Shown: positions 21,616 through 55,040, counted from the first letter of the stretch. The stretch: 64,000 nt of DNA from Candidatus Shapirobacteria bacterium (GCA_043817235.1 JBDRHA010000007.1:9212-73211); one strand, 5' to 3'. Numbers and translations: made by a program. Notes: generated by a model not told the origin, from the sequence alone.

Positions 21616-22130
21616 ATGGTCCTTTCATTTGGATAAGTGGATAGCATTGTAAACACATCACTTGTTAGTCGTAGTGGAGTATTGCAAACAGAGTAGTAAG
21701 GATAAGTATTTAGCTTTTTCCATTGTTTTGGTTTTAACGCCGCATTATCTCCAAAGGTATAAATAAGGATAGGGATCTTTTGTGCCACAGATTTGTCAAA
21801 AATTGAGTCAAAATTCTCCATCTTTTCATCACATCCTAAAATGACCAGGCTGTGGTTGGAAATTCTTACAGTGTCCCTAAAATCACCTGTTGGCTTTTCA
21901 ACATTGAATAACCCACTTTTTGACAATAGGTTGTATTCCATCTCCATGTTCTTTGTTGCATTTCCCGGCGGGAAGAAAATCTTAATCGGTCTTTTCAGAT
22001 TGTTATTAATTATTTTCTCTCTCTTATAAAAAAGTTTGAAATACGATACGGCGGCGACAATACCTATGACTGCCGATGTTCCGATCAAAACCAGCCAATG
22101 AATCAAACTTAAAGTGCCTAATACTTCCAT
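21612..22130 (-). CDS. Single-pass membrane protein with a cytoplasmic alpha/beta domain, hypothetical.
   Basis: N-terminal TM helix LVLIGTSAVIGIVAAV. It overlaps the NTase start by 4 nt. Confidence 0.3.
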   Translation of the reverse strand: MEVLGTLSLIHWLVLIGTSAVIGIVAAVSYFKLFYKREKIINNNLKRPIKIFFPPGNATKNMEMEYNLLSKSGLFNVEKPTGDFRDTVRISNHSLVILGCDEKMENFDSIFDKSVAQKIPILIYTFGDNAALKPKQWKKLNTYPYYSVCNTPLRLTSDVFTMLSTYPNERTI

Positions 22131-22131: not shown

Positions 22132-22755
22132 TTATTTGTTTCCTTTCTTAATTACATCTATAGCAACCCCTTGGACAGAGAAGTTTTCAAGTAAAATAAT
22201 TGGTTTATTCTTCGGATTAGTTGACTCCGGCTGAAGTCGAACATAACCATCTTCGGGGATAATCTTTTTAATGGTTGCCTCATCTCCGACAAGAACAACC
22301 ACGCGACTACCAGAATCGGCCGTTTGTTGTTTTTGGACCAGAACAAAGTCTCCATCGTCAATTGCCTTGCCAGAAACCCTGGTGGCGTTCATGCTATCTC
22401 CCACTGCGCGTAAGAAAAAGTAGTCATTTGGTGACCCTCCGATTTTGGAAGCATCATATGAGATGTAAGCTTCAACATTCTCTGTGGCTAGAAATGGGAC
22501 CCCACAGGCTACATTACCCACTAGGGGAATTTGAACTTTGTCAGATGAGTCAGGCAAAGATAGACCACGAGCATTTTTTAAGTAACCCTTTTCTTTAAGG
22601 GCATCTGTGTGTCGCTGGACAGAACTTACACTGGATAGACCAAGAAGTACTCGAAGCTCTTCAAGCGTAGGCATCACACCATTTTTACTGACCTGATCTT
22701 TAATCAGAGAGAGTACCGTTTTTTGTTTTGAGGTTAAGGGCTTCTTCATACGCAT
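22132..22755 (-). CDS. lexA: LexA-like transcriptional repressor (HTH plus S24 peptidase).
   Basis: VQRHTDALKEKGYL is the HTH. GDSM is the catalytic Ser. The downstream KK is the Lys dyad. The first gene of the 8-gene co-directional cluster. Confidence 0.75.
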   Translation of the reverse strand: MRMKKPLTSKQKTVLSLIKDQVSKNGVMPTLEELRVLLGLSSVSSVQRHTDALKEKGYLKNARGLSLPDSSDKVQIPLVGNVACGVPFLATENVEAYISYDASKIGGSPNDYFFLRAVGDSMNATRVSGKAIDDGDFVLVQKQQTADSGSRVVVLVGDEATIKKIIPEDGYVRLQPESTNPKNKPIILLENFSVQGVAIDVIKKGNK

Positions 22756-22886
22756 AATTCTACTCTAACTAGCGTAATTATGCAATAGCTATTTGTTCCA
22801 TAAAGTCTGTCAAGGGGGAATTTTCTTTGGATTCTTATACGGCACCAACGCCAATTAGACCGTAATACCGGCATAATTAGAGTTAC

Positions 22887-22921
22887 CCCATTGACAACCA
22901 CCCCCCTTATTGTCAACGGGG
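22887..22921. promoter_or_regulatory. Palindrome ccccattgacaa-N11-ttgtcaacgggg in the divergent lexA / ParB-methylase intergenic region. It is a candidate operator or bidirectional -35 element.
   Basis: 11/12 bp inverted repeat. Each arm contains TTGACA. Confidence 0.3.
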
Positions 22922-22956
22922 TTCTCAAAAAATCTCATGGTAAATTCATATTAATT

Positions 22957-24282
22957 ATGAAAAATAAACACATCCAAACAGTCGAAGTTCCCGTCAGCGA
23001 TTTAATTCCTGCAGACTATAATCCCCGAAAGTGGAGCGATAAGGCTGTTAAAGATTTAAAAGAAAGCATTAGTCGTTTTGGATTTGTAACTCCTATTGTT
23101 GCAAATTCTGCTCCTGAAAGAAAAAACCGTGTGATAGGGGGACATTTTAGGATAAAAATAGCAAAAGACTTGGGAATAATAAAAATTCCTGTCGTTTATA
23201 TAAACATCCCTGATATTGAGAAGGAGAAAGAACTCAATCTGCGTTTAAACAAAAACACAGGAGAATTTGATTGGGATTTACTCGCTAACTTTGACGAGTC
23301 ATTCCTTTCTGATATTGGTTTTTCCAGCGGAGAGCTTGATGACATCTTTGATATCGATACTCCAGAAGAATTTAACCTTAAAAAAGAGCTGGAGAAACTC
23401 GACATTAAAAAGATCAATACCAAAAAAGGAGATGTTTATGTATTGGGTGAAAGTCGTCTGATGTGTGGGGATTCTACCATCGAAAAAGACATGCAAAAAC
23501 TGATGAACAACCAAAAAGTGGATATGTGTTTTACAGATCCTCCTTACATTTTAGATTACCTTCATGGCAAGAAAAAACACGGCAAACCGATTACCGGATT
23601 TGGGGCAAAAAGAGATAGGCGATATTTAGAAACTGATGTACTACCTCCAGATTTTACGGAAAAGTGGATGGCAAATATCGCTAAAGTCCAAAACGAACAT
23701 TTCAGCATCATTGTCTATGAAAATTGGAAAAATCTTCGAACCATTTGGGGTGAGATGGAAAAATACTGGAAAATTAAGAACATGATCGTTTGGCATTTGC
23801 CAAATCGTCACCAAGGATTCTCAGCAAAGTACAAGTTCTTCAGCAAACACGATATCGCTATGGTTGGCGCCACTCCAGATAAAAACATTCCGTTCAATTT
23901 GAAGGGTGAAACGGATAGCTTACAAGAAGAATATGAAACAGCCTTATTTGCTATTTCCGGGAAACCTCACTGGGAGGGTTATAGGAAAGGCAAGAGAAAC
24001 CAACCAACGGACCACATCGAACATGTTGCTTCTGATGAAAAACAGTCAGGTCAAGGAGTTGTTTTTGGTACCAAGCCAGTAGAAATATTAATTCCATACA
24101 TCAAGGTTTTAACAAAGCGTGGTGATTTGATAATAGAACCATTTGGTGGAAGTGGTAGTACTTTGATTGCCGCCACCAAGATGAAGCGACGATGCTACAT
24201 CATGGAAAAATCACCCGTGTATACGGAAGTAATAATTAAGCGTTGGGAAAAATTAACAGGACAAATAGCTAAAAAACTATGA
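22957..24282 (+). CDS. ParB-like nuclease domain fused to a DNA methyltransferase (phage-type DNA modification methylase).
   Basis: ParB N-terminus IVANSAPERKNRVIGGHFR. The MTase motif is DPPY (CFTDPPYIL). The C-terminus is GGSGST. Confidence 0.7.
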   Translation: MKNKHIQTVEVPVSDLIPADYNPRKWSDKAVKDLKESISRFGFVTPIVANSAPERKNRVIGGHFRIKIAKDLGIIKIPVVYINIPDIEKEKELNLRLNKNTGEFDWDLLANFDESFLSDIGFSSGELDDIFDIDTPEEFNLKKELEKLDIKKINTKKGDVYVLGESRLMCGDSTIEKDMQKLMNNQKVDMCFTDPPYILDYLHGKKKHGKPITGFGAKRDRRYLETDVLPPDFTEKWMANIAKVQNEHFSIIVYENWKNLRTIWGEMEKYWKIKNMIVWHLPNRHQGFSAKYKFFSKHDIAMVGATPDKNIPFNLKGETDSLQEEYETALFAISGKPHWEGYRKGKRNQPTDHIEHVASDEKQSGQGVVFGTKPVEILIPYIKVLTKRGDLIIEPFGGSGSTLIAATKMKRRCYIMEKSPVYTEVIIKRWEKLTGQIAKKL

Positions 24283-24686
24283 ACAAAACAATTGCAAAAC
24301 GTCAAACCAAAAACAAAGAGCTAATACTTAAACAGCTCAAGAAAACACCAATAGTACAAATTGCTTGCGAAAGAGTTGGAATTGGCAGGGCCACATATTA
24401 CAGATGGCGAAAAGATGATTCTAAATTTACTAAAGCTAGTGACAAAGCATTACTTGACGGAAACTTGCTCGTCAATGATATGGCCGAGTCACAATTGATG
24501 AGTGCTATTAAAGACAAAAATATGACGGCTATTATTTTTTGGCTCAAACATCACCATCCTGCATACCTTACTAGGTTAGAAATTACTTCAACCAACAAAA
24601 CTGAAGAGGCACTTAATCCCGAACAGCACCAAGCTGTAAAGAAAGCATTGCTGATGGCTGGTGTTGTCCCCCAAGCAAATGAATAA
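24279..24686 (+). CDS. Terminase small subunit-like HTH protein.
   Basis: The HTH is GIGRATYYRWRK. Its position is immediately upstream of, and overlapping, the large terminase. Confidence 0.4.
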   Translation: MNKTIAKRQTKNKELILKQLKKTPIVQIACERVGIGRATYYRWRKDDSKFTKASDKALLDGNLLVNDMAESQLMSAIKDKNMTAIIFWLKHHHPAYLTRLEITSTNKTEEALNPEQHQAVKKALLMAGVVPQANE

Positions 24687-26208
24687 GCAATTTTTTACAA
24701 AATTATCAACTAATCGGAAATTTCGTAGACAATCAGCATACTCAAGTCATTTCTTATTCTTTCACTTGTATATGAATGAGTATGTCAAATATCCAACGGC
24801 ACAATTTCAAAAAACAATTTTCCAAATAACGGAGAAGGCCTTAATCAAAGAATTTTTTCTGATGGCTTTTCGTGGTTCAGGAAAATCGACAATTCTAACC
24901 ATGTCTTACCCCATTTGGGCAATAGTTGGTGTTCAGCAAAAAAAGTTTGTTTTAATCATTAGTCGAACTCAAAATCAAAGCAACGCTTTGTTTTATCATG
25001 TCCGCAGAGAACTCGAAAGCAACTTGCTTCTTAAAAACGACTTTGGTCCGTTTATGAAGAAAAATTATGATTGGAGTTCCAACACTCTGGAGATTCCAAA
25101 GTATGGCGCTCGTATCACCTGCGCTTCTGTAGGAGAAAGTATTCGCGGAATCAGACATGGATCATTTCGTCCGGATCTCATTATTCTCGACGATGTGGAA
25201 GATAAATTCTCAGTCAGGACATTTGATGGCAGGGAAAAAACGCGCCAATGGTATTCCAGTGAGATAAGGCCTTTGGGCGATTTTGGTACTCGAATAATCG
25301 CTGTGGGTACCATGCTTCATGACGATTCACTCATGATGAAATTAAAGGATTATGACGATAATATTGGAATGCACAGTGTGTTTTTGAGATATCCCCTAAT
25401 AGATGAAAACGATAAGATTGCTTGGCCTGAGAAATTTACCAGAGAAAGCATTGAAGAATTAAAAACAAGTATGTTACACCCTAATGCATTTGATCAAGAG
25501 TATCTTCTTTTGAGCGTTCCAGAGGATAATCAGATTATCAAGCGAGAGTGGATCAGATACTACGATAAACCTCTGCCCAATGAACACATACCGCAACCCA
25601 GAATGATTCTGATGGCTATCGACCTTGCGATCAAAAAAGGCGATGGCAGAGATTACACCTCAATAGTCCCTATGTATGTAACTGGGTATGATAAAAACCT
25701 GCGAGTTTATATGCTTCCATACATTGTAAACAAACAATTGGATTTTCCGGAAACTGTAACTGAGGTTTTAAAACTCAACGCAAAACTCCAAAAGATATTT
25801 AACATACCTCCAAAGATTTATGTTGAAAGTGTTGGATACCAAGATTCTCTCGTACAGCAGTTATTTACAGTAGAAAAAATAGCAGCAGAACCTGTTAATG
25901 TTGGACGATTAAGCAAGCCAGAAAGATTGAGCATTGTTTCACCTTATGTAGAGGCTGGTAAGGTTTTCTTTTATTCAGGCATGGATGGAATGATAAGCCA
26001 GTTATTAAATATCTTCTCAACCAAACACGACGATATGGCAGATGCTTTCACTATGGGATTGAGTCAAGTTATCAAAACAGATAGACCATATTATCAATTA
26101 AACGAGCCAGCTAAACCAACACGACACTGGCATACGTGCCCGATTACAGGAGAATACCGCAACTTCTCTGTACCCATCATGTCTGGATTGCTAAATAAAG
26201 AGTTCTAA
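24679..26208 (+). CDS. Phage terminase large subunit.
   Basis: Walker A AFRGSGKST. ILDDVED is Walker B-like. The C-terminal region is nuclease-like. Confidence 0.7.
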   Translation: MNKQFFTKLSTNRKFRRQSAYSSHFLFFHLYMNEYVKYPTAQFQKTIFQITEKALIKEFFLMAFRGSGKSTILTMSYPIWAIVGVQQKKFVLIISRTQNQSNALFYHVRRELESNLLLKNDFGPFMKKNYDWSSNTLEIPKYGARITCASVGESIRGIRHGSFRPDLIILDDVEDKFSVRTFDGREKTRQWYSSEIRPLGDFGTRIIAVGTMLHDDSLMMKLKDYDDNIGMHSVFLRYPLIDENDKIAWPEKFTRESIEELKTSMLHPNAFDQEYLLLSVPEDNQIIKREWIRYYDKPLPNEHIPQPRMILMAIDLAIKKGDGRDYTSIVPMYVTGYDKNLRVYMLPYIVNKQLDFPETVTEVLKLNAKLQKIFNIPPKIYVESVGYQDSLVQQLFTVEKIAAEPVNVGRLSKPERLSIVSPYVEAGKVFFYSGMDGMISQLLNIFSTKHDDMADAFTMGLSQVIKTDRPYYQLNEPAKPTRHWHTCPITGEYRNFSVPIMSGLLNKEF

Positions 26209-33103: not shown

Positions 33104-33286
33104 ATGGTAAGTAAGTTTATGGAAGAACTGCTAACTCTTAAAGAAACAGCTCAAATCCTCAAAGTCCACCCAAACACACTAAGACTGTGGGACAATAATG
33201 GCGTGCTTAAAGCAGTGCGGATTGGAGTGAAAAAGATAAGAAAATACAGAAAAAAAGATATTGAAAACTTTATAAACAAAAAATAG
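33104..33286 (+). CDS. Excisionase/MerR-like HTH DNA-binding protein.
   Basis: LLTLKETAQILKVHPNTLRLWDNNGVLKAVRIG. Confidence 0.5.
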   Translation: MVSKFMEELLTLKETAQILKVHPNTLRLWDNNGVLKAVRIGVKKIRKYRKKDIENFINKK

Positions 33287-33288
33287 TC

Positions 33289-34878
33289 ATGACAAAAACT
33301 GATAAAAAATTACACGAAAAGCTATGGGCATCTGCTCAACAACTTAGAGCAAATAGCAGTCTCAAACTTAACGAAATATCAGAACCTATTCTTGGGCTTA
33401 TTTTTTTGAAATTTGCAGATGTTCGATTTCAAAAAGCAAAAAAAGATGTTGAAGCTGAGCGATCTAATGTATTACGAGATTCAGGCTCTTCAAGAGTCAG
33501 ACCTTTAGCTCCCGAAGACTTCAAAGCAAAGGGCATCCTGTATGTTCCCGAGGCATCTGGATACAAGTACTTAATGTCTCTTCCAGAAAATGAAAATATT
33601 GGAAAGGCTATAAACAAGGCCATGGAAGAAATTGAAGAAGCAAACAAAGACCTAGCTGGTGTGCTTCCACAAAATTACACATCACTTGTTAAAAATGCCA
33701 ATAAAAATAATAAGCTACTTTTAACGCTACTTAAAAGTTTTAATCAAATACCTGACGATATAAAAGGAGATGCTTTTGGTGGGATTTACGAATTTTTCTT
33801 AGGACAATTTGCCCTAGCAGAAGGTAGAAATGGAGGAGAATTTTTTACTGCACAACCAATTGTAAAATTACTGGTTGAAGTGATAGAGCCCTATAAAGGT
33901 AGGATTTACGATCCAGCGTGTGGTAGTGGTGGAATGTTTGTGCAATCTGCAAATTTTGTGCAACGACACAAAGATTACAACTCTCAAGTAATGGATAAAA
34001 TAACCATTTATGGTCAGGAAAAAACATCCAGCACAGTCAACATTGCCAAAATGAATCTAGCCATCCATGGGCTCTCTGGAAAGATTGTGCAAGCTAACTC
34101 TTATTACGAGAATCCATTTAACAGCACTGGTAGATTTGATTTTGTGCTGGCTAATCCTCCTTTTAATGTTAGTGGAGTTGATAAAAATAAACAAATCGTT
34201 ATTGATCCCAAAAAGATCGAGGGAGATAGGCGTTTTGAGCTAGGATTACCCCTAACTCAAAAAGGTGATGTTACTAATGCCAATTACCTTTGGGCTCAAG
34301 TATTTGCTAATTCTTTAAATAGCAAAGGTCGAGCTGGTTTTATTATGGCTAACTCAGCCAGCGATGCTAATTATGCTGAAAAAGACATCAGAATAAAGTT
34401 AATCGAAGAGGATCTGGTAGACGTAATGATTGCTGTAGGGTCAAACATGTTTTTGAATGTCACACTTTCCTGCACTCTCTGGTTTTTTGATAAAGATAAA
34501 AAGAATTCCAGTAGAAAAGGAAAAACCTTATTTATAAATGCCCAAGACATTTACACCCCAATCGATCGGGCACATAATACTTGGACTGAAGAACAAATTA
34601 AGGGAATCGCTGACATAGTTAAAAGATATCGAGGAGAAACGGGCTTCGGTAAATATGAGGACATTAAGGGTAGGTGCAAGGTGGCTAGCCTTGAAGAAAT
34701 CAAAGCAAATAATTATTCTCTCAACTCCGGAAGGTATGTAGAAATAAAGGAAAAAGATGTAGATAATGTGGATTTTGAAACTCGGATGAAAGAGTTGATG
34801 AGCGAGTTTACTATCCTAACTCAAAAAGCGCATAAATTGGAAGATAAAATCTCTAAAGACTGGAAAAAAATATTATGA
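33289..34878 (+). CDS. hsdM: Type I restriction-modification system, methyltransferase subunit.
   Basis: GEFFTAQ is motif X. DPACGSGG is motif I. LANPPFN is motif IV. Confidence 0.9.
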   Translation: MTKTDKKLHEKLWASAQQLRANSSLKLNEISEPILGLIFLKFADVRFQKAKKDVEAERSNVLRDSGSSRVRPLAPEDFKAKGILYVPEASGYKYLMSLPENENIGKAINKAMEEIEEANKDLAGVLPQNYTSLVKNANKNNKLLLTLLKSFNQIPDDIKGDAFGGIYEFFLGQFALAEGRNGGEFFTAQPIVKLLVEVIEPYKGRIYDPACGSGGMFVQSANFVQRHKDYNSQVMDKITIYGQEKTSSTVNIAKMNLAIHGLSGKIVQANSYYENPFNSTGRFDFVLANPPFNVSGVDKNKQIVIDPKKIEGDRRFELGLPLTQKGDVTNANYLWAQVFANSLNSKGRAGFIMANSASDANYAEKDIRIKLIEEDLVDVMIAVGSNMFLNVTLSCTLWFFDKDKKNSSRKGKTLFINAQDIYTPIDRAHNTWTEEQIKGIADIVKRYRGETGFGKYEDIKGRCKVASLEEIKANNYSLNSGRYVEIKEKDVDNVDFETRMKELMSEFTILTQKAHKLEDKISKDWKKIL

Positions 34879-36107
34879 ATGGATGGAACAAAGTATCGCT
34901 ATCTGAATTAGGAAAGGTTTCAAGAGGGAAATCAAAACATCGTCCGCGAAATGATCCTAAGCTATATGGTGGAAACTACCCCTTTATCCAAACTGCAGAC
35001 GTCAAAAATGCTAATTTTTATATAGATAGTTATTCTCAAACATACAACGAGTACGGATTGAAACAAAGCAAGCTTTGGGATAAGGATACTCTTTGTATAA
35101 CAATCGCTGCTAACATTGCCGAGTCAGCACTTTTAAATTTCCCCGCTTGTTTCCCCGATAGCATAGTCGGATTTCTCCCACAAGAAGGAAAATCTGATGT
35201 TCGATATGTCAAATACATGTTGGATAACTACAAATCTGAGTTTCAAAAGAGGTCAAAAGGGGCTACTCAGGATAACCTAAGTGTTAGTAAAATTAACTCC
35301 CTTAAAATGTCAGTTCCTCCCCATTCTTATCAAGTTCAAATTGCAGATATAATTTCCACCTACGATACCCTTATCGACAATAATCAAAAACGCATTAAAA
35401 TTTTAGAAGAAATGGCTCAAAGGTTATACACAGAGTGGTTTGTAAAGTTTAAGTTTCCAGAGCATGAAAAAGTAAAAATGGTTGATAGTAGTACTAAGCA
35501 TGGAAAGATCCCTGAGAGGTGGGAGGTAAAGAAGCTAGCTAATCTGATTAATCCTCAATATGGTCTTACAACTTCAACAGTTACCATAGAGAGAAGTTAC
35601 AAATTCCTCAGGGGAACAGATATAAATAAAAACAGTTATATAGATTGGCGGTTTGTGCCTTATTGTGACGTGTCCGAAGAAAAGATGAATAAATACAAGA
35701 TAAGTGTTGGAGATGTATTTATTATTAGGATGGCAGATCCAGGAAAAATTGGGATATGTGAGACAAATGTAAACGCAATATTTGCTTCGTACCTTATGAG
35801 ATTAAATATTGGAAAGTCTCTCACTCCTTATTATCTTTATTATTTTTTAAAATCAGATAAATATCAGAACTTCATACTTGGGAGCAGTACGGGAACGACT
35901 CGCAAAAGTATCAATTCAAAACAAGTGGCAAACATAGAAATTGTAATCCCTAGTGATAAAATCATGTCTAAATTTGAAGAAAACATTTCGCTTTTAAGAA
36001 GTCAGCTAACTAGTTTACTAAGTAGTATTGGAGTTTTTTCCCGGATGAGAGATTTACTTATAGAAAATTTAATTACTGGGAAAAGAGTCTTGAAAGAAGA
36101 AATATGA
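34875..36107 (+). CDS. hsdS: Type I RM specificity subunit (two TRDs).
   Basis: Its position overlaps the hsdM stop. There are conserved coiled repeats between the two target-recognition domains. Confidence 0.8.
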   Translation: MNGWNKVSLSELGKVSRGKSKHRPRNDPKLYGGNYPFIQTADVKNANFYIDSYSQTYNEYGLKQSKLWDKDTLCITIAANIAESALLNFPACFPDSIVGFLPQEGKSDVRYVKYMLDNYKSEFQKRSKGATQDNLSVSKINSLKMSVPPHSYQVQIADIISTYDTLIDNNQKRIKILEEMAQRLYTEWFVKFKFPEHEKVKMVDSSTKHGKIPERWEVKKLANLINPQYGLTTSTVTIERSYKFLRGTDINKNSYIDWRFVPYCDVSEEKMNKYKISVGDVFIIRMADPGKIGICETNVNAIFASYLMRLNIGKSLTPYYLYYFLKSDKYQNFILGSSTGTTRKSINSKQVANIEIVIPSDKIMSKFEENISLLRSQLTSLLSSIGVFSRMRDLLIENLITGKRVLKEEI

Positions 36108-37186
36108 ATAAAAGCACATACTTTGACTTAACGAATCAAGATATTGAAAATCTCAGAATTGAGAGAGTTGACAACTTTGATTGTGAGCTGAAAGACGATA
36201 GTCAAATTTACGATGGATTTATTATTGCAAAAAGCCCAACTGGAAGTGTTCTGACAGTCTGTGATTCTAGTTTTCATAAATCAGACACTGATGATAAATA
36301 TCAACCACGCTTAATATTTAGAAAATCTAATGAAAATTTTGAAAACAAAACTACTAGATCTGACGCAACACATATTAGAATTCCTTTTCTCACAGGTCAA
36401 GACGGCTATCGAGAATTCTGGAAGATGATTTCATTCTTATACAGGTTTAAAGACCTAATTGATGTAGGTCATTTTGAAGACAGCTTTCAAGTAGTGGTCA
36501 CAGATCAAAACAGTGCTCATTATATTTCTGAACTTTTAGAGAAAGGTTACTCCAAAGGTGTATGGCAAGCTTTAGTTGAAGTAGATCCGGATTTAGCCAC
36601 TAAGCTTTCTTTGTCTAGAATTTATGAATCTAGAAAATCAGTAATAGAAGAAATGAAAACTAAAATTAGCCAAGATGAAAATGAAGAATACTGGCAAAAG
36701 TTACTAGCAAAAAATAGGTGGATTTTTGGAAATAGCTATATAGGAATTATAGGCGAGAGAAGAACTAACATATCCTCAACACTAGACCATCCTCTCATTA
36801 CTGAAGATGGTTATCTTGAAATAGTTGAAATCAAAAAACCAAGTTTCTCATTCTGGAAGCTAAAAACAAACGGAGAACAATATTTATATAGAGATAAATA
36901 CTTAGTTCCTCACCAAGAATTGCAAAATGCGATAACACAAGGTTCGAATTATATATTTGAAACTGAGAAGGAAATGGACAGAAAATCATGGGCAGAAAGC
37001 CATGATGGAATATATCCACTAAAACCAAAGTGTTTAATTATTCATGGCAGATCAAACGACTGGGGGGATAACGAGTCTCAATCTTACAGATTACTAAATG
37101 ACAGGCTTCATGGAGTATCAATAATCACTTTTGACCATTTGATTTTAAGGGCAAAACAAACTTTAGAACTATTTAAACCAGAATAA
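36104..37186 (+). CDS. Shedu/DUF4263-like protein with a C-terminal PD-(D/E)XK nuclease domain, embedded between hsdS and hsdR.
   Basis: C-terminal HPLITEDGYLEIVEIKKP is a D...E-x-K motif. The N-terminal domain is unrelated to RM subunits. Both junctions overlap the neighbouring genes. Confidence 0.45.
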   Translation: MNKSTYFDLTNQDIENLRIERVDNFDCELKDDSQIYDGFIIAKSPTGSVLTVCDSSFHKSDTDDKYQPRLIFRKSNENFENKTTRSDATHIRIPFLTGQDGYREFWKMISFLYRFKDLIDVGHFEDSFQVVVTDQNSAHYISELLEKGYSKGVWQALVEVDPDLATKLSLSRIYESRKSVIEEMKTKISQDENEEYWQKLLAKNRWIFGNSYIGIIGERRTNISSTLDHPLITEDGYLEIVEIKKPSFSFWKLKTNGEQYLYRDKYLVPHQELQNAITQGSNYIFETEKEMDRKSWAESHDGIYPLKPKCLIIHGRSNDWGDNESQSYRLLNDRLHGVSIITFDHLILRAKQTLELFKPE

Positions 37187-37190
37187 TAAT

Positions 37191-40100
37191 ATGAATAAAT
37201 TTACAGAAGACAACTTAGTTGAAAAAACAGTAATAAGTTTGATTGAGGAGTTGTGGAAAAATCCTAATTGTCATATCAACGCCTTTACTGATAAGGAAGA
37301 TAAAAAACTTGGCAGGGAAAATCGTGGCGAGGTTCTACTCCCCTCTTCTCTGCGATCTTCATTAGAAAAACTCAATCCCAACATCCCACCAGAAACTATT
37401 GAAGAAGCAATAGCTGAGATATCACGAGATCGCTCAACTCTTTCTTTGATTAAGGCTAATCAAGAAATTTACAGTGTTCTTAAAGACGGTTTAAACATTA
37501 ATGTTAAACAGTCTGATGATAGTTTTAAAACCGAAACTATCAAATTCTTAGATTTTGAAAACCCAGAAAATAATCACTTTCAAATAGTATCTCAAATGTG
37601 GATTGTGGGAGATATTTATACAAAACGACCTGATGTAATTCTATTTGTGAATGGCATTCCATTAATTTTATTTGAGCTTAAGGCTTCTCACAAAAATCTG
37701 TCAAACGCTCTTAGGCAAAATATCCACCCATACATAGAGACAATACCCAAGCTTTTTTGGTACAACATGGGCATTGTCTTATCTAATGGTATCGAAAACA
37801 AAATAGGCTCATTTACTTCCCATTATGAGTTCTATAATGATTGGAAAAAGGTTGAGAGTGAAGATGACAAATCTAAAACAGATCTACGTACACTTGTTTT
37901 TGGAGTTTGCAATAAAACAAGACTTTTAGATATTTTTGAAAATTATTGTTTGTTTGATGAGTCAAAAGGAGAGATTAAAAAAATAGTTCCTCGGTACTTT
38001 CAGTATTACGGTGTTACCAAAGCATTTGAGAATGTAAAAAATAGGATTGATCTTGATGGTAGACTAGGAGTTTTTTGGCATACTCAAGGATCCGGGAAAT
38101 CTTATTCGATGGTTTGGTTGTCCCAAAAAGTTTTGAGAAAACTTCAAGGCAACTTTACTTTTGTTGTTGTGACCGACAGAACTCAATTAGATGGACAAGC
38201 TTATGGAAACTTTGCCAATGTAGGGGCTGTATATGAAAAAGAGGTAAGAGCTACCAGTATTCACAATCTACACGAACTCTTGCAGGAAGATCATCGACAA
38301 ATATTTACCACTATTCAAAAATTTCAACACATTAAAGGTAGTATCTCTGATCGTAATGACATCATTGTCATGACAGATGAGGCGCATCGTTCCCAATACG
38401 ATCACTTTGCTTTAAATATGAGAAAGGCTCTACCGAACGCTTCGTTTATTGGTTTTACAGGCACTCCCCTTATGGCTAAGGGTGAAGAAAAAACTAGAGA
38501 GGCTTTTGGAGATTATGTTTCTGTTTATAATTTTGGTCAGTCTATTGAAGATAAGGCTACTGTGCCATTGTTTTATGAAAACAGAGTACCTTTCTTAAAA
38601 AATGTTAACGAAAACCTAGATAAAGATCTAGAAAAGGTTATTGAATTTTATGACCTAAATGAAGATGCAGAAGATAAACTTGAAAAGGAATTTTCAACCT
38701 TTTATCACATAGTAACTAGAGAAGATCGTCTTAACGCCATCGCTCGTGATATTGTTCAACATTTTGTTAGCCGAGGGTATGACGGAAAAGCTATGGTTGT
38801 AAGTGTAGATAAAAAAACTGCTATTAGAATGCATGCCAAAGTTCAGAATGAATGGAAACGATATTTAGGCAAGTTGAGATTGGAGTTGGGGAAAACAACC
38901 GACGAACTAGAAAAAACAAAAATTCTTGAAAAGCTGGAAAAACACGAAGATGTTGATATGGCTGTAGTTGTAAGCCAAAGTCAAAGTGAAATCGAAGATA
39001 TGGCAGAGTTTGAAATTGACATGAAGCCAATTCGAGCAAGAATAAAAAATGAAAATCTTGAAAAAAAATTCAAAAAAGCAGAGAGCAACTTGAGAATTGT
39101 GTTTGTTTGTGCCATGTGGATGACGGGCTTTGATGTTCCCAATCTCTCAACGCTATATCTTGATAGACCATTGAAAAATCATACACTTATGCAAACTATT
39201 GCCAGAGCAAATAGGGTTTACCCAGACAAAAAAAATGGTGTAATCGTTGATTACATTGGTGTTTTCAAGAATTTGGAAAAAGCTTTAGCTTTGTATGCAT
39301 CAACTGGAGTAAGTGATGACGAAGTTGTCAGAGATAAAAAAGAGTTATTAGAAGAACTCAAAGAAGTGGTTAAACTTACAGAGACTATAACAGTTGAAAG
39401 GGGCATTAATATTAGGACACTTCTAGAAGTAGATGGAGAAGAAAAACTCAAGCTTCTCAATAATTATACAGATGTTGTTTTAGCCGATGAAAAATATAAG
39501 AGAAAACTATTAACCATAGCTAGTGAGTTGAATAGTACCTACAAATCAGTTTTGCCCAACCCAGACGCAGAACAATACTATAATTTTGTAACTGCTGTAA
39601 AAGTTTTATCCTCAAGAGTTAGAGATATTGGTTCCCACAGTGTAGACGTATCTCAGGTTAAGCGAGATTTAGAAGAACTTCTCGACCGATCAATTCAAAC
39701 TGGGGAGTACGTGATCCCTCAACATAAAAAGATAAAAGACCTAAGTCAGTTAGACGCAAATGCCTTAAGAGATTATTTTAAGGAGCTAGAAAACAAAAAC
39801 ATTCAGGTCGAAGAGATGAAGGCAGAGCTCAAAGATAAAATTGAGGAAATGATTAGAAGAAACAAGAAAAGGACTCAATTCATGGATCGTCTTAATTCTT
39901 TGCTGAATGAGTACAATAGTGGTGCCCACGATATAGATAAACTATTTGACGATTTAGTAAAATTAGCAAAAGACCTCACGAATGAAGAGCAGCGCTCTAT
40001 AAAAGAAAATCTATCTGAGGATGAACTAGCAATTTTTGATTTACTATTGAAAGAAAAATTGGAGAATAAAGAAATTGATCAAGTTAGGAAAACAGCTAGA

Positions 40101-40328
40101 ACTTTACTAAAAAAACTTCAGGAGGAGAAACTGGTACTTGATTGGAGAGAAAAAGAATCTACACGGGCAGGTGTTAAAAATACTATTTTCGATATAGTTT
40201 ACAATTCTCTTCCAGAGCCAACATATACAGAACAGGAATGTGAGGCAAAAGGATCAGAGGTCTATAATTTCGTATTTGAGAGATATGGAACTTTTAATCA
40301 CCAACAAGCTCAGATCTATGCGCAATAA
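37191..40328 (+). CDS. hsdR: Type I restriction enzyme R subunit.
   Basis: N-terminal PD-(D/E)XK. Helicase motifs QGSGKS, DEAHRSQ and GFTGTPL. Confidence 0.9.
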   Translation: MNKFTEDNLVEKTVISLIEELWKNPNCHINAFTDKEDKKLGRENRGEVLLPSSLRSSLEKLNPNIPPETIEEAIAEISRDRSTLSLIKANQEIYSVLKDGLNINVKQSDDSFKTETIKFLDFENPENNHFQIVSQMWIVGDIYTKRPDVILFVNGIPLILFELKASHKNLSNALRQNIHPYIETIPKLFWYNMGIVLSNGIENKIGSFTSHYEFYNDWKKVESEDDKSKTDLRTLVFGVCNKTRLLDIFENYCLFDESKGEIKKIVPRYFQYYGVTKAFENVKNRIDLDGRLGVFWHTQGSGKSYSMVWLSQKVLRKLQGNFTFVVVTDRTQLDGQAYGNFANVGAVYEKEVRATSIHNLHELLQEDHRQIFTTIQKFQHIKGSISDRNDIIVMTDEAHRSQYDHFALNMRKALPNASFIGFTGTPLMAKGEEKTREAFGDYVSVYNFGQSIEDKATVPLFYENRVPFLKNVNENLDKDLEKVIEFYDLNEDAEDKLEKEFSTFYHIVTREDRLNAIARDIVQHFVSRGYDGKAMVVSVDKKTAIRMHAKVQNEWKRYLGKLRLELGKTTDELEKTKILEKLEKHEDVDMAVVVSQSQSEIEDMAEFEIDMKPIRARIKNENLEKKFKKAESNLRIVFVCAMWMTGFDVPNLSTLYLDRPLKNHTLMQTIARANRVYPDKKNGVIVDYIGVFKNLEKALALYASTGVSDDEVVRDKKELLEELKEVVKLTETITVERGINIRTLLEVDGEEKLKLLNNYTDVVLADEKYKRKLLTIASELNSTYKSVLPNPDAEQYYNFVTAVKVLSSRVRDIGSHSVDVSQVKRDLEELLDRSIQTGEYVIPQHKKIKDLSQLDANALRDYFKELENKNIQVEEMKAELKDKIEEMIRRNKKRTQFMDRLNSLLNEYNSGAHDIDKLFDDLVKLAKDLTNEEQRSIKENLSEDELAIFDLLLKEKLENKEIDQVRKTARTLLKKLQEEKLVLDWREKESTRAGVKNTIFDIVYNSLPEPTYTEQECEAKGSEVYNFVFERYGTFNHQQAQIYAQ

Positions 40329-40346
40329 TTACGAGCAAAATCTAGC

Positions 40347-41852
40347 ATGACTCTCTCCAAATCCGACTACATGCTATTTCTCCGCCACCCTGCTTGGTTG
40401 TGGCTGAAGAAATTTGAAAAACACAAACTACCCCCAACTGATGATAATTTGCAAGCCATATTTGATGCCGGACATGAATTTGAAGAATACGCTGAAAAGC
40501 TATTTCCTGATGGAGTAAAACTCGGGTTTAATAATTTTGACGAATATCGTTCATTGCCCGACAAAACGAAAAAAGCTCTGGACGACTGTGCTTCTACTAT
40601 TTTTCAAGGACGCTTTGAAGAGAATGGTTTAACTTGTATTGTGGATGTGCTTGAGTGTGTTGAGGGGAATACTTTTGATTTGATCGAAATTAAAAGTAGC
40701 ACAAGAGCAAAACCAGAACATAATTATGACTTAGCTTTTCAAGCAATCGTCTTAGAAAAATCAGGACTTAAAATCCGAAATATCTTCGTAATTCACGCAA
40801 ACAAGGAATATTCCCGAAATGGTGACATTGAATCTGAGAAACTCACGATAAAGACTGATGTGACCGAGAATGTAAAAGCCTTGATTGATTTAACAAAAAA
40901 GCAGATTAAAAAAGCATTTAAGGTATTAGCTGTAAAAGAAATGCCGGATATTTCTCCACGCCTTGTTAATCAAGCTGGAGTTACTGGAGTGCAATGGTTT
41001 GCAGAATGGCTAGAAGTATACAAGAGTTTGAAATCCAATCTTGATCCCTACAGTATATATTTCTTGAGTTTCCCGAATGCAGATCAAATTGGCCAACTAG
41101 AGGATGTAGGAATTAAACAGTTAGCAGATGTTCCCGAAAAGTTAGCATTGCGTCCCAAACAAGTGACACAAATCCAAACCACCAGAGACAACAAAAGAAT
41201 TATTGATAAAGAGAAAATAAGAGAGTTTTTAAGCACTTTTAAGTTCCCGCTGTATTTTCTCGATTACGAGACATTTTCTTCTGTGATACCTGCTTTTGAT
41301 GGCTGTCAACCCTACAAAGACTACCCATTTCAGTATTCACTCCATGTTTTGGATACTCCCGAATCTGAGATACGCCACGTTGAATACCTACACCAGGAGA
41401 ATTCAAATCCCATACCAGGGCTAATTAAAAAACTAAAGGTAGATATTGGTAAAAAGGGTACAATTCTCACTTGGAATATGAGCTACGAGAAAGGATGTAA
41501 TGATAGAATGGCAGGACTTTATCCTAAATACAAAGAATTTTTAGACTGCCTGAACGAGCATATCCATGACTTGATGATTCCATTTTCAGAAATGTGGTTT
41601 GTGGACAAAGATTTCTTTGGCAGCGCTTCAATAAAAAATGTCATGCCAGTACTTGCTCCTGAACTTAGTTATAAAGAATTGGGTATTTCAGATGGTCTAT
41701 TTGCCAGAAGGATGTGGACACAGACAGTTTTAGAGGGCAAGAATCAAAGCGAGCGGAAAAGAATCATGGCGGATTTGAGCAAATACTGTACTTTGGACAC
41801 TTTTGCAATGGTAAGAATATTAGAAGAATTGCAAAAAATCATAAAAACTTAG
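40347..41852 (+). CDS. DUF2779-like protein: an N-terminal PD-(D/E)XK nuclease-like domain plus a C-terminal RNase H-like (DEDD-type) domain.
   Basis: The N-terminus LSKSDYMLFLRHPAWLWL is the DUF2779-type start. IDVLE...LIEIKSS. YFLDYETFS is an exonuclease motif I-like. Confidence 0.45.
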   Translation: MTLSKSDYMLFLRHPAWLWLKKFEKHKLPPTDDNLQAIFDAGHEFEEYAEKLFPDGVKLGFNNFDEYRSLPDKTKKALDDCASTIFQGRFEENGLTCIVDVLECVEGNTFDLIEIKSSTRAKPEHNYDLAFQAIVLEKSGLKIRNIFVIHANKEYSRNGDIESEKLTIKTDVTENVKALIDLTKKQIKKAFKVLAVKEMPDISPRLVNQAGVTGVQWFAEWLEVYKSLKSNLDPYSIYFLSFPNADQIGQLEDVGIKQLADVPEKLALRPKQVTQIQTTRDNKRIIDKEKIREFLSTFKFPLYFLDYETFSSVIPAFDGCQPYKDYPFQYSLHVLDTPESEIRHVEYLHQENSNPIPGLIKKLKVDIGKKGTILTWNMSYEKGCNDRMAGLYPKYKEFLDCLNEHIHDLMIPFSEMWFVDKDFFGSASIKNVMPVLAPELSYKELGISDGLFARRMWTQTVLEGKNQSERKRIMADLSKYCTLDTFAMVRILEELQKIIKT

Positions 41853-41915
41853 TCCTGTTTTAGCCTAGCAATGAGACTCTTCTAAGCCTGGACTTCTTAA
41901 CCCCTTCCCGGTACC

Positions 41916-43268
41916 TTGTACCCTGAAATGGGAACATACAACCAAAATCAACAAAAAGAGCTTCCAAAAATCAAATACTGTCTTTATGCCCGCAAATCTT
42001 CCGAATCAGATGAGCGCCAAGCCATGTCAATTGGTTCTCAGATTGAAGAAATGAAAACACTGGCAAAACGAGATAATCTCAAAATTAAGGAGATAAAGCA
42101 AGAAAGCCACTCGGCCAAGAATTCTGGCTCCAGACCCGTCTTTACCCAACTACTCCAAGAGATAAGACAAAAGAAGTTTAACGGCATACTTACCTGGGCT
42201 CCGGATAGATTAAGTAGAAATGCAGGTGACTTAGGATCGGTAGTAGATCTAATGGATCAAGGAAAACTTATAAAAATCCAAACATACTCGCAAAGTTTCA
42301 GCAATAGTCCAAATGAAAAATTCTTACTAATGATTCTCTGTTCTCAGGCAAAGCTAGAGAACGATAACAAGGGCGTAAACGTTCAAAGAGGACTCAGGAC
42401 TAAGTGTGCCATGGGCTGGCGTCCTAGCATCGCTCCACTAGGCTACTTAAACCAAAAAGGTGATGGTCACGTCGATGAATTGATTATTCTTGACTTGGAA
42501 CGATCATCTTTTGTCACTCAAATGTTCAAAAGAGTTGCTAATCAAGGCCATAGCGGAAGAGCATTAAAAAACTGGCTAGATAGAATTGGATTTGAAACTA
42601 GAAATGGAAATAAAATCCCATTGAGTAAAGTATATTCAACTCTCAAGAATCCATTCTATTACGGTGAGTTTGAATTCCCCGTGGGCAGTGGCACATGGTA
42701 CAAGGGCAAACACAAACCACTCATTACAAAAGAAATCTTCGATAAAGTTCAAGCTATTCTTCAGACTGTTCCCAAGGGATATAAAAATAAAGTCTTTCCA
42801 TTTAAGAAAATCTTCAAATGTGGAAGTTGTGGTGGAAATGTAACAGCTGAAGAAAAGTACAGGAAACTAAAACATGGTGGTTGTACAAAACACATTTACT
42901 ACCACTGTGGCAGATCTATCGATTATCAATGCGATGAGCCATACATTACTGAAGCTAACTTAATTAAACAACTCATAGCCAATATCGATAAAATGAAGTT
43001 CAACTACGCTGGAATAACCAGAAAAATCCAGCAAGACATTGAAAGATATCACAAACTAAAAACACAGGTACTTCATCAGGAATTTATTGACGGTAATTTA
43101 ACTGAATTCAACAATGTTCCCAAAACTGTTGCTGACAAAAATAAAATGACCAAAAACTACGTACTCCACATTCTCAAAGTAGGCACAGCAGAAGAAAGAC
43201 AAGAAGCTCTGTCGTTTATCAAAACAAAGTTCATTCTGTCAAAAAGAACGATAATAATACAGAAATAA
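41916..43268 (+). CDS. Large serine recombinase (integrase-type).
   Basis: The YARKSSESDERQAMSIGSQ catalytic region. A recombinase domain. A C-terminal Cys cluster CGSCGG...HCG. Confidence 0.8.
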   Translation: MYPEMGTYNQNQQKELPKIKYCLYARKSSESDERQAMSIGSQIEEMKTLAKRDNLKIKEIKQESHSAKNSGSRPVFTQLLQEIRQKKFNGILTWAPDRLSRNAGDLGSVVDLMDQGKLIKIQTYSQSFSNSPNEKFLLMILCSQAKLENDNKGVNVQRGLRTKCAMGWRPSIAPLGYLNQKGDGHVDELIILDLERSSFVTQMFKRVANQGHSGRALKNWLDRIGFETRNGNKIPLSKVYSTLKNPFYYGEFEFPVGSGTWYKGKHKPLITKEIFDKVQAILQTVPKGYKNKVFPFKKIFKCGSCGGNVTAEEKYRKLKHGGCTKHIYYHCGRSIDYQCDEPYITEANLIKQLIANIDKMKFNYAGITRKIQQDIERYHKLKTQVLHQEFIDGNLTEFNNVPKTVADKNKMTKNYVLHILKVGTAEERQEALSFIKTKFILSKRTIIIQK

Positions 43269-43445
43269 CAGCGTCATTTAGGAGTGGCGTACTTCTCGTG
43301 GTTTAAAAAGTAAGTTTTTACTGAAACTTAAACCATACATTACAGGATCTAAAACGACACTTCGAGCAAACTGAAGAAAAATTAGCAAGCAACATCGGGC
43401 TTTTTGGCGCAGGCGTACGGGTCGCCCTGAACCTGGCGATACTTG

Positions 43446-43518
43446 TGACCCCACGGGGAATCGAACCCCGGTTTCCAGGATGAGAACCTGGTGTCCTAGG
43501 CCGCTAGACGATGGGGCC
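43446..43518 (-). tRNA. tRNA-Glu (anticodon CTC).
   Basis: Manual fold. GGCCCCA acceptor. D-arm GTCTAGCGGCCTAGGAC. Anticodon stem CCAGG/CCTGG with loop TTCTCAT. T-arm GGTTCGATTCC. CCA is not encoded. Confidence 0.75.
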
Positions 43519-43559: not shown

Positions 43560-44882
43560 TTAGCTTAGGAGAGTTTGTTTTCTGTGTAAAGATTTATAGT
43601 ACTTTTGGGCAAAGCGGTGGGATTCATCGCGGATTTGCTGGAGTAGTTTTAAAACTTCGGAGTCTTTTTTTAGCTTGATTGCCCGAAAAGATTTTAATTG
43701 ACCGTTTTCCAGCCGAGGGGCAATAATTAACTCCTGCTTTTTGGCCAAGCCCAAAATAGCGATTTGATCTTGGAGATTTTTTTCTTTGAGAGCGGCAAAA
43801 GCGGCCGCTGCTTGGGGTTTACCGCCGTCCACTAAAATTAATTGCGGATAAAGCCACTCCTGATGCTTAAGCCGACGGGTAATAATTTGTTTTATAGCCG
43901 CCGCGTCATTTTGAGTAGCCTGAAATATTTTTATATTAAATTTCCGGTAAAGTGATTTTTCCGGCTGAGCATTTAAAAAAGCTACCATAGACCCGACTAT
44001 AATATCTTTTCCCAAACTAGAAACATCATAACCCTCTATTTTGGTTAAAGTAAGCGGGTCAACTCTTTCGTGTTTTATAATTAACTCCCTTAGTGATTCT
44101 AGGGTTGACTTGGAACTAATTTCTTCGCGGGGAACTCTTTTCCAGCCTTGAGTGATATAAGCAATAGAGCTTATTTTGTCCCGCAAAATTTTTGCTTTTT
44201 CGAATTTATTCTTTTTGGATTCACGGCGCATTTCTTTTTCCAGGCTCTTTATCAAGGTTTTGGTTTGGCCGGATAAAAACTTTTTTATTCGGGTAATATT
44301 TTGGCGATATTCAGGTGAATTTAAATTTTCTATCCCCGGGCATAAATTTAAGTGAGAATAAAAGCATTGTTTTTTAGGAAGCGTTTTGCAAGAGCAGAAG
44401 GGGAAGATTCGGCGAATAATTTTTAAGACTTCGCGGGCGGTGTTGCCGGAAGGAAAAGGACCATAGAAACTATCTATTTTTTCATTTAAATCAACACGTC
44501 GCACAATATTAAGGCGGGGAAAAGGGGAGAGGAAGACGGCAATATATAAATATCTTTTGCCGTCTTTGTGCTGGATATTATACTGGGGCTGGTGCTCCCG
44601 GATTAATTTCGCTTCCAGCAATAAAGCTTCAATTTCTGAATTAACAATTAAATAGTCTAGGGAGTTTATTTGGGATACAAGTTTTTGAGTTTTTTGATCT
44701 TGGGTCCGCCAGCTGGCGGATTTAAGAAAATAACTTTTGACCCGGACTTTGAGGCTTAAGGCTTTGCCAATATAAATAATTTCGCCTGATTTGTTTTTAA
44801 AATAATATATCCCAGGTTTATTAGGAATTTCTTTGAGTTTTTCTTTTAAGTTATCTTTATCCACGCCCTCAAATGATATCAT
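43560..44882 (-). CDS. uvrC: Excinuclease ABC subunit C. It is a short form lacking the C-terminal (HhH)2 domain.
   Basis: GIY-YIG: PGIYYFKNKSGEIIYIGKA. Cys-rich region. RNase H-like domain: EGYDVSSLGKDIIVGSMVAF, LVDGGKPQ. It ends right after the DESHRFA helix. Confidence 0.8.
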   Translation of the reverse strand: MISFEGVDKDNLKEKLKEIPNKPGIYYFKNKSGEIIYIGKALSLKVRVKSYFLKSASWRTQDQKTQKLVSQINSLDYLIVNSEIEALLLEAKLIREHQPQYNIQHKDGKRYLYIAVFLSPFPRLNIVRRVDLNEKIDSFYGPFPSGNTAREVLKIIRRIFPFCSCKTLPKKQCFYSHLNLCPGIENLNSPEYRQNITRIKKFLSGQTKTLIKSLEKEMRRESKKNKFEKAKILRDKISSIAYITQGWKRVPREEISSKSTLESLRELIIKHERVDPLTLTKIEGYDVSSLGKDIIVGSMVAFLNAQPEKSLYRKFNIKIFQATQNDAAAIKQIITRRLKHQEWLYPQLILVDGGKPQAAAAFAALKEKNLQDQIAILGLAKKQELIIAPRLENGQLKSFRAIKLKKDSEVLKLLQQIRDESHRFAQKYYKSLHRKQTLLS

Positions 44883-44991
44883 GCCTAAAAGAGATACAGC
44901 CGCACCCGGTTCCCAAAGAAGATCTAAGATCAAGATTCCTAAGCAATGGAATCAGGCTTTGATTTCCTTCGAGGACCGGGTGCTTTCGAGC

Positions 44992-53227: not shown

Positions 53228-53280
53228 TTTTAAATTAAAATTCTCTTTTGAAGGCAAAAAGTTTTGTTTTCAAAAGGGAA

Positions 53281-53352
53281 CCGGGCAGCGAGCAGATGTG
53301 TCTCTCAAAAGAGAGAGGGAGACTGTGAAGTCTCGCACATCTGTCGCTGCCC
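53281..53352 (-). terminator. Long hairpin (17-bp stem gggcagcgagcagatgtg / cacatctgtcgctgccc). It is a candidate intrinsic terminator of the GC-rich lipoprotein gene.
   Basis: A near-perfect inverted repeat with a ~35-nt loop. T-rich tract downstream on the minus strand. Confidence 0.4.
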
Positions 53353-53389
53353 TAGTTCCGGGTTAGTTACCTCCTTTCTTCAGAAAGGC

Positions 53390-53968: not shown

Positions 53969-53969
53969 G

Positions 53970-54821: not shown

Positions 54822-55040
54822 ATCGTTCCTCCTGCGATCTATTTATTAACAGTCGGAACCCCGACTGATTGTTTTTAAACCCGGAACTGTTAAAGTGCGA
54901 CAATGAGTTTGCTTTAGCCAGCTATTGGCTAAGTAAACTCAAAGTCACTTATTGAGACTCATCTAGCTGAAAGCAAATCATCAGCTTGACTCTCAACTTC
55001 TGATAGTCTCAAGAGTTTTTTTAGAATAGGAATATAATTT

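Follow-up and report, generated by a model that had tools for sequence, protein, structure and literature searches.

A Shedu nuclease gene embedded between hsdS and hsdR of a Type I restriction-modification operon in a Candidatus Shapirobacteria genome

The window analyzed here is a stretch of 64,000 nt from a Candidatus Shapirobacteria bacterium (GCA_043817235.1 JBDRHA010000007.1:9212-73211), and all coordinates below are positions within it. Between hsdS and hsdR of a Type I restriction-modification (RM) operon, the window carries a 360-aa gene (36104-37186, + strand) whose product, judged by profile matches and a predicted fold, is a genuine Shedu (SduA/DUF4263) nuclease. On balance, we favor the view that this SduA protein is a working nuclease that forms an autonomous DNA-targeting layer, co-expressed with the Type I RM system on a mobile defence island of a Candidate Phyla Radiation (CPR) genome.

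Results

The insert in the Type I operon is a Shedu nuclease

The Pfam family SduA_C (PF14082) covers residues 192-347 of the inserted protein with an E-value of 2e-20 (74 bits against a cut-off of 27) and is the only Pfam family found in it. Nineteen SduA models of PADLOC match the protein, the best at 2.6e-50, and every PADLOC match is to an SduA model; none of the NCBIfam models matches. The solved Shedu structures 8TI8, 8TI9 and 8PS4 were matched by phmmer at about 1e-5. In the AlphaFold2 (AF2) model (predicted local distance difference test, pLDDT, of 81), residues 125-133 form a low-confidence linker. A Foldseek comparison of this model with 8PS5, 8TI9 and 8TI8 gave E-values of 1e-8 to 1e-6 at a probability of 1.0, the best TMt being 0.72, to the nuclease domain of 8TI9. 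The helical linker and the DUF4263/SduA_C PD-(D/E)XK domain together span residues 134-360 (36503-37186, + strand).

The catalytic residues D228, E242 and K244 and the downstream Q279 are all present in the insert, with E242, K244 and Q279 at least 90% conserved among 75 homologues, and in the phmmer alignments these motifs fall on the LIEIK and TQ motifs of Bacillus cereus SduA. The original prediction for this locus had proposed a DUF4263 nuclease with a core reading D...EVEIKK; both the family and the PD-(D/E)XK core are borne out, whereas the letters of the motif are in fact L-E-I-V-E242-I-K244-K. It had named a fragment of HsdR or another Type I accessory protein as the identity that would overturn it, and Pfam and PADLOC revealed neither; nor did they detect the ABC-ATPase or anticodon-nuclease domains of PrrC/RloC. 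An identical protein, from a Candidatus Shapirobacteria metagenome-assembled genome, is already named Shedu SduA domain-containing protein at NCBI.

The gene belongs to a run of seven tightly spaced + strand genes (33104-43268), comprising an HTH_17 open reading frame (ORF), hsdM, hsdS, the 360-aa ORF, hsdR, a DUF2779 gene and a serine recombinase gene. Spacing among the first five, from the HTH_17 ORF to hsdR, does not exceed 4 nt. The junction sequences show a 4-nt ATGA overlap both between hsdM and hsdS and between hsdS and the insert, followed by a 4-nt gap between the insert and hsdR and an 18-nt gap between hsdR and the DUF2779 gene. The ORFs of the operon and the DUF2779 gene were recovered where they had been placed previously, and of the overlaps of at most 4 nt claimed along hsdM-hsdS-insert-hsdR, only the one between the insert and hsdR gave way, to a gap. 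No terminator-like site was found on the + strand between 33104 and 41258, and promoter-like matches in the region were no commoner than in shuffled sequence and were given no weight.

The RM genes around the insert provide all the parts of a Type I system. hsdM (33289-34878, + strand) encodes the methyltransferase subunit (HsdM_N and N6_Mtase, 1.7e-80; PADLOC MTase_I, 4e-182) with an NPPF motif at residue 289, and scores under the narrow TIGR00497 equivalog cut-off but far over the Pfam cut-offs. The specificity subunit, encoded by hsdS (34875-36107, + strand), contains two target-recognition regions (Methylase_S 4.9e-29, in two stretches; PADLOC Specificity_I 1.7e-87). The restriction/translocase subunit, encoded by hsdR (37191-40328, + strand; HSDR_N 2.5e-39, SWI2_SNF2 8e-70, T1R_D3-like and T1RH-like_C), reaches 512 bits against TIGR00348, for which the cut-off is 284.55, and has the motifs GSGKS, DEAH and, in its nuclease, D148...E161-x-K163. 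N6-adenine methyltransferase motifs in HsdM, an HsdS with two target-recognition regions, and an HsdR with a nuclease and a superfamily 2 ATPase are therefore all found, and the system is complete; it looks functional by its motifs, and hsdR appears intact. Since the nuclease and ATPase motifs of HsdR are intact, we rejected the idea that SduA substitutes for a dead HsdR nuclease.

The order hsdM-hsdS-SduA-hsdR is kept in all close relatives (73-80% identical). The nucleotide identity of the cassette to one related locus, L001 (loci of our survey are given as L numbers), is 72-74% outside the hsdS recognition region, and the homology begins at 33085. In the distal part of hsdS (35533-36044), and nowhere else in the cassette, nucleotide similarity to L001 is lost, although the flanks are conserved; this divergence is consistent with an exchanged target-recognition domain and a different specificity.

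The 60-aa ORF that opens the operon (33104-33286, + strand) encodes an HTH_17/MerR-like DNA-binding protein (Pfam HTH_17 1.7e-10, MerR_1 5e-08). Its ATG at 33104 is the position from which the original prediction had counted the operon, leaving the gene unnamed, and it ends 2 nt upstream of hsdM. A small HTH_17 gene also stands ahead of hsdM in L001 and ahead of the cargo genes in L040. HsdM of the sister loci L091 and L096 carries an N-terminal HTH_17 fusion. This places the small ORF with the RM module and suggests an operon regulator rather than an excisionase; the 60-aa protein is thus probably a regulator of the RM operon.

The N-terminal domain is found on Shedu nucleases only

Residues 1-128 of the Shedu protein (36104-36487, + strand) form a separate domain that we named NTD-X. 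Its predicted fold is a β-sheet of about six strands followed by one helix (pLDDT 85.9, predicted template modeling score 0.79). The domain had been suspected to be unrelated to known ones, and our searches agree: it has no Pfam match at E<=0.1, no Foldseek match in the PDB (nothing better than an E-value of 0.22 and a template modeling score, TM, of 0.35) or in BFVD, and no profile similarity to the SduA_N-type domains of its nearest relatives (hhalign probability 0.1). NTD-X accordingly falls outside the described class of Shedu N-terminal regulatory domains (e.g. SduA_N, PF21407). The same PDB search gave no support for recognition of modified bases through a PUA/EVE/SRA-like fold such as that of Type 1E Shedu, and the viral models of BFVD contained no match that would suggest a phage-encoded mimic of the domain.

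When 1.84 billion representative proteins were scanned in full with HMMER, NTD-X was recovered in only 75 clusters, always at the N-terminus and fused to Shedu nucleases only; 37 of the 46 longer members contain SduA_C and no further domain. The domain is about 50% identical among homologues that are about 32% identical over their whole length, with the conserved motifs DxKYQPRLxFR and GxDGYREFW. NTD-X is presumed to be a sensor or regulatory domain, and it may match one of the numbered N-terminal clusters, or the unclassified 'Type 1X', of Gu et al. (bioRxiv 10.1101/2023.08.10.552793; Mol Cell 2025), as far as these are laid out in the main text of that study.

Sensor and nuclease have been recombined at the interdomain linker

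The two parts of the protein have different closest relatives. NTD-X of the insert is 51-69% identical to its counterparts in proteins that match the insert's nuclease domain at only 23-35% identity, whereas the nuclease module of the insert (residues 134-360) is 62-79% identical to that of Shedu proteins with the unrelated SduA_N domain. This split pattern indicates that sensor and effector were recombined. The junction lies at about residue 126-130 (~129), within the linker of residues 125-133; a BLAST extension to residue 78 in the comparison with protein P0014 was spurious, the real homology beginning near residue 126-130. In our favored reading, the sensor domain has been exchanged within the hsdS-hsdR slot through recombination at the interdomain linker.

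NTD-X Shedu genes are frequently found in restriction-modification loci

Using motif-based scans for NTD-X, we collected 30 loci from genomes and 50 from metagenomes; their hosts belong to CPR phyla and to Proteobacteria, Bacteroidota, Ignavibacteriota, Aminicenantes and Actinobacteria. Neighbouring genes were annotated by Pfam, and by phmmer against a panel of RM proteins built from the Pfam results. Collapsing at 90% identity gave 55 informative clusters, and a same-strand RM gene within three genes was counted as an RM neighbour. By this measure, 38 of the 55 clusters are in RM loci, which represent at least seven architectures: the partners are Type I, Type III, IIG/MmeI-like, IIS/AlwI, C5-methyltransferase/NgoFVII, Type ISP and PLD-SNF2 systems. 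Type I systems account for 24 of the 38, nearly always in the order hsdS-SduA-hsdR, and no RM neighbour was detected for ~30% of the informative clusters.

As a control, we looked at five sister Shedu proteins with a canonical SduA_N domain. In three cases, the gene occupies the hsdS-hsdR gap of a Type I locus; the other two are stand-alone genes. The presence of SduA_N-type sisters in the same slot indicates that the embedding belongs to the Shedu lineage and the slot, not to NTD-X, and it weakens the idea that NTD-X is an RM-specific adaptor that explains the embedding. Across the loci compared, accessory genes recurrently occupy the gap between hsdS and hsdR.

Other genes occupy such positions as well. 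RhuM-family genes and unknown ORFs of 319 aa, 371 aa and ~200 aa are inserted between hsd or mod/res genes in L008, L043, L044, L075, L078 and L014, and the RM operons of these lineages have more than one accessory slot. In L012, L049 and L051, which belong to a Saccharibacteria lineage, the Shedu gene lies outside any RM locus and is split into ORFs of 186 and 104 aa; these copies are probably pseudogenes.

The DUF2779 protein downstream of the operon

The gene that follows hsdR (40347-41852, + strand) encodes a 501-aa DUF2779 protein with matches to PF11074 (1.1e-36; 126 bits against a cut-off of 23.3) and, marginally, to Cas_Cas4 (8.6e-05; 23.1 bits against 22.7). Across 22 homologues, the most distant of them 33% identical, residues E114, K116, D306, E308, Y480 and D484 do not vary. 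As far as sequence motifs alone can tell, D306-x-E308 and Y480-x3-D484 in the C-terminal half are consistent with a DEDDh/y assignment (PMC13621843). The family has been placed in the 3'-5' exonuclease clade of RNase H-like proteins (F.17), with a DUF83/Cas4-like partner domain (PMC3985635), and members such as MMSYN1_0389 have been described as Cas4-like and DEDDh fusions (PMC13621843). Family matches, literature and invariant residues thus agree with the earlier description of this protein as a PD-(D/E)XK nuclease joined to an RNase H-like exonuclease. It would have in common with MMSYN1_0389 and F.17 the two-domain build of a Cas4-like PD-(D/E)XK and a putative DEDD-type domain, with conserved candidate catalytic residues; unlike them, it is located at the edge of a variable defence-cargo slot of a CPR mobile element. 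Its function, as throughout the family, is a predicted one.

CPR bacteria have a large and strongly conserved DUF2779 family. Close homologues follow hsdR in L001 and L039, and come immediately behind SduA where other RM cargoes end in L017, L021, L022, L024, L025, L058 and L063; one comes after a cargo without an adjacent Shedu gene (L040) and one has no RM system alongside (L038). Their companions in these loci are a LexA-like repressor, a ParB-N6_N4 methylase, two unknown genes, DUF2188 and HTH_17. DUF2779 is therefore probably a backbone gene of a CPR mobile-element family that borders a variable defence-cargo slot, not an RM partner; a functional link between DUF2779 and Shedu is possible. 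At several other loci, a gene for a PDDEXK_1 (RecB/Cas4-like) protein of ~250 aa is found just after SduA or hsdR (L003, L018, L057, L069) or a few genes past hsdR (L096), a position resembling that of DUF2779 in the window. A HARE-HTH/PDDEXK_5 protein is encoded downstream in L039.

Borders and cargo of the defence island

The seventh gene of the run (41916-43268, + strand) encodes a large serine recombinase of 450 aa (Resolvase PF00239, Recombinase PF07508 and Zn_ribbon_recom PF13408, all over threshold). It lies at the right end of the island and is syntenic in L001. A tRNA-Glu(CTC) gene (43445-43518, - strand; ARAGORN and Rfam) forms the right border, beyond which Pfam identifies the chromosomal genes uvrC and uvrA. 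The region 43339-43518 is 80% identical over 180 bp to the tRNA-Glu region near the recombinase in L001 (18476-18655), and the ~105 bp past the 3' end of the tRNA gene that are conserved in both islands are a possible attachment-site region. L001 contains the same cassette, recombinase and nearby tRNA-Glu with other outer flanks, and this combination of a shared cassette and different flanks supports mobility. At the junction of recombinase and tRNA, we found no direct repeats beyond chance 10-13-mers, a result that carries no information where serine integrases are concerned. When the cassette was compared with plasmids by megablast, a short hsdR match was the only one. Delivery of the island by a serine integrase, as first proposed, is thus only partly supported, by the synteny with L001, the differing flanks and the tRNA gene, though attachment sites were not found at this junction.

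The defence island extends over ~8-43 kb, which is larger than the span of the original prediction, and includes a second large serine recombinase gene (14630-16018), which precedes the one at 41916 by ~27 kb. The interval bounded by the two recombinases may be one composite mobile element or two. It includes backbone genes (22132-26208) for a LexA-like repressor, a ParB-N6_N4 methyltransferase and two unknown proteins (135 and 515 aa), a set common to L001, L018, L038 and L040. In the CPR loci compared, these backbone genes, together with HTH_17 and DUF2779, bracket differing defence cargoes.

To the left of the backbone genes (16829-22130, - strand) is an operon resembling a cyclic oligonucleotide-based antiphage signaling system (CBASS), with genes for a transmembrane effector (21612-22130), an oligonucleotide cyclase/SMODS protein (20557-21615) and an E2-like protein (19815-20597) and with an unannotated 549-aa gene; a DUF3800 gene is located at 16829-17596. 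A second defence cluster, likewise on the - strand (8141-14293), consists of a Type IIG restriction-methyltransferase (11207-14293; PADLOC 7e-291), an OLD/GajA/AriA (Gabija)-like ATPase-nuclease (9339-11204) and a DUF2130 protein (8141-9328).

Some further features of the window and of related loci were noted. A segment of ~7 kb that is missing from the otherwise syntenic L001 (26795-33007) encodes an ArsR-like regulator, an ArsP-type permease, a 4Fe-4S ferredoxin, membrane proteins and a 196-aa protein without a Pfam match. In L040 (927-13092), HTH_17 is followed by a cargo of a PLD-SNF2 helicase, an Eco57I-like methylase and a reverse transcriptase, and then by DUF2779; a different SduA_C gene, of 392 aa, lies nearby on the opposite strand. 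Beyond the island, the UvrC protein (43560-44933, - strand) has 457 aa, its Pfam matches end at residue 442, and the usual C-terminal helix-hairpin-helix appears to be missing. At ~53260-54870, the G+C content is 51-52%, compared with 37% for the genome, with long ORFs on both strands and neither a Pfam nor a credible Rfam match.

Discussion

In the reading that we favor, sduA would be transcribed within the HTH_17-hsdM-hsdS-sduA-hsdR operon, and its product would form a tetramer if it resembles the solved B. cereus and Escherichia coli Shedu enzymes. By analogy with characterized relatives, NTD-X would keep the PD-(D/E)XK nuclease off until an infection-associated DNA feature is encountered, free DNA ends or single-stranded DNA being the likeliest trigger, upon which the activated enzyme would nick or cut DNA. 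SduA would in this way share expression and mobility with the RM system and cover phages that escape restriction, and it may also profit from the DNA ends that restriction makes. The intact RM system, the conserved four-gene unit, and the preserved reading frame and catalytic residues count in favor of a working SduA in the operon, while the occurrence of NTD-X with unrelated RM types, or with no RM gene nearby, points to autonomy from any particular RM protein.

Several considerations weigh against this reading. RM embedding of the NTD-X clusters amounts to 69%, compared with ~11% for Shedu overall according to the counts in the main text of Gu et al., a difference that argues for more than casual co-location and may reflect a functional dependence on restriction. 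The tally itself derives from phmmer searches against our own RM panel, and the sequences counted are not phylogenetically independent. The far better conservation of NTD-X than of the nuclease would also fit binding of a conserved protein partner, as in KELShedu. Moreover, the proposed trigger, oligomeric state and substrate are borrowed from distant relatives with ~20% nuclease identity and unrelated N-terminal domains.

Dependence on restriction is the core of one alternative, which we hold to be possible but tentative. In that case, SduA would need the RM enzyme, read double-strand ends or stalled complexes, and shred phage DNA already cut, aided by the DUF2779 or PDDEXK_1 exonucleases; it would do for small-genome CPR bacteria a post-restriction job like that of RecBCD in E. 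coli. Broken DNA would be the sole factor common to the diverse RM architectures with NTD-X Shedu genes, a review citing Loeff et al. (PMC12409362) credits E. coli SduA with sensing free DNA ends, and Cas4/RecB-like end-processing nucleases recur downstream, with DUF2779 within three genes in 6 clusters and with the PDDEXK_1 genes of L003, L018, L057 and L069 and the PDDEXK_5 gene of L039. Nearly a third of the informative clusters, on the other hand, have no detected RM neighbour, and DUF2779 looks like a backbone gene of the element, as it also occurs without RM or Shedu (L038) and without an adjacent Shedu gene (L040). Nor does NTD-X have any similarity detectable by Foldseek to the end-binding domain of E. 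coli SduA. A wider form of the same idea seems to us about equally speculative: the lineage would be a general post-restriction module, with sensors that read the ends or stalled complexes left by any restriction enzyme and are swapped in situ as phages adapt, and with a DUF2779 (Cas4-DEDD) or RecB-like exonuclease it would complete the destruction of restricted DNA in bacteria with small genomes.

SduA could also be a guardian of the kind exemplified by PrrC, which fires in EcoprrI when T4 Stp inhibits the enzyme (PMC12707154): the RM complex would hold SduA inactive and free it, as a suicidal DNase, once RM is blocked by an anti-restriction protein from a phage. The hsdS-hsdR position is the classic site of such an embedded guardian, translational coupling to hsdS would favor co-assembly, and a β-sheet N-terminal domain of a Shedu protein can bind a protein partner (KELB-KELA, bioRxiv 10.1101/2025.09.13.674623). 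We nevertheless consider this improbable, because the same NTD-X, at ~50% identity, is found beside unrelated RM subunits (Types I, III, IIG, IIS, II and ISP) and alone, and because the unrelated SduA_N domain fills the same slot in sister loci; the insert furthermore has no similarity to the domains of PrrC/RloC. Very improbable, finally, is that sduA is a passenger, selfish or in decay, which sits in an operon slot that tolerates inserts and adds nothing to defence. The RhuM genes and unknown ORFs in the hsdS-hsdR and hsdM-hsdS gaps of related loci would suit such a passenger, as would the split and presumably dead copies mentioned above. The sduA reading frame is intact, however, with conserved catalytic residues and 73-80% identity to several independent relatives; NTD-X is under stronger constraint than the rest of the protein, and published work has proven members of the family to be anti-phage nucleases (PMC12409362 and the main text of bioRxiv 10.1101/2023.08.10.552793).

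The locus exemplifies, in clean and intact form and with translational coupling, the placement of Shedu in RM operons, an arrangement that has been published but not studied, and provides three leads. One is a compact domain family, carried by Shedu nucleases only, that lacks a Pfam model and a structural match and is more conserved than the nuclease it accompanies. Another is evidence for the hsdS-hsdR gap as a slot where Shedu sensor domains exchange at the linker, and the third is a CPR mobile-element family whose HTH_17 and DUF2779 genes bracket variable defence cargo. If the idea of a post-restriction module were true, RM and Shedu would constitute a functionally coupled two-stage restriction system rather than two neighbours. 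Dependence of RM-embedded Shedu on restriction products would account both for an association that spans RM types and for the end-processing nucleases that recur, and would show mechanistic cooperation of layered defences beyond co-occurrence.

Comparison with known systems

The solved enzymes closest in fold, B. cereus SduA (8TI8/8TI9) and E. coli SduA (8PS4/8PS5), have the same nuclease fold as the insert, and their D...ExK and Q motifs align with it. Their identity to the insert is ~16-21%, and their N-terminal domains are unrelated to NTD-X both by sequence and by Foldseek. They are stand-alone single-gene systems, whereas the insert described here is embedded in an RM operon.

In this last respect, the insert resembles PrrC in the Type IC locus EcoprrI, and RloC, as an accessory defence gene embedded in a Type I hsd operon (PMC12707154). 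PrrC, however, is an ABC-ATPase/tRNA anticodon nuclease silenced by the RM enzyme, while the insert is a predicted DNA-targeting PD-(D/E)XK Shedu protein without PrrC-like domains, and its clade, unlike PrrC, is not confined to one RM type. KELShedu (bioRxiv 10.1101/2025.09.13.674623) likewise combines a DUF4263 nuclease and a β-sheet N-terminal domain with a co-operonic partner. That partner, KELA, is a 12.6-kDa double-stranded DNA-binding protein; no such gene is present here, where the neighbours are RM subunits and DUF2779.

The nearest precedent for the arrangement itself is the survey of Gu et al., whose main text reports 602 of 5,499 Shedu genes in Type I-IV RM systems and 87 in bacteriophage exclusion (BREX) loci, suggests that Shedu complements such systems, and describes diverse, swappable N-terminal sensor domains. 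As in our locus, these cases are single DUF4263 nuclease genes in RM operons. The main text presents counts and examples; in it we found neither a tie of the embedding to a particular N-terminal domain or nuclease lineage nor the hsdS-hsdR slot and the swapping of domains within it, so that the lineage- and slot-specific pattern, the orphan N-terminal domain and the in-slot swap go beyond that text. The original prediction had suggested that a Shedu-like insert in a Type I locus would be a different instance of embedding from PrrC/RloC, but these counts show that it is not a new one: a Shedu gene inside a Type I RM operon is a documented arrangement, and the locus in the window is a well-preserved example of it, not a new kind of system.

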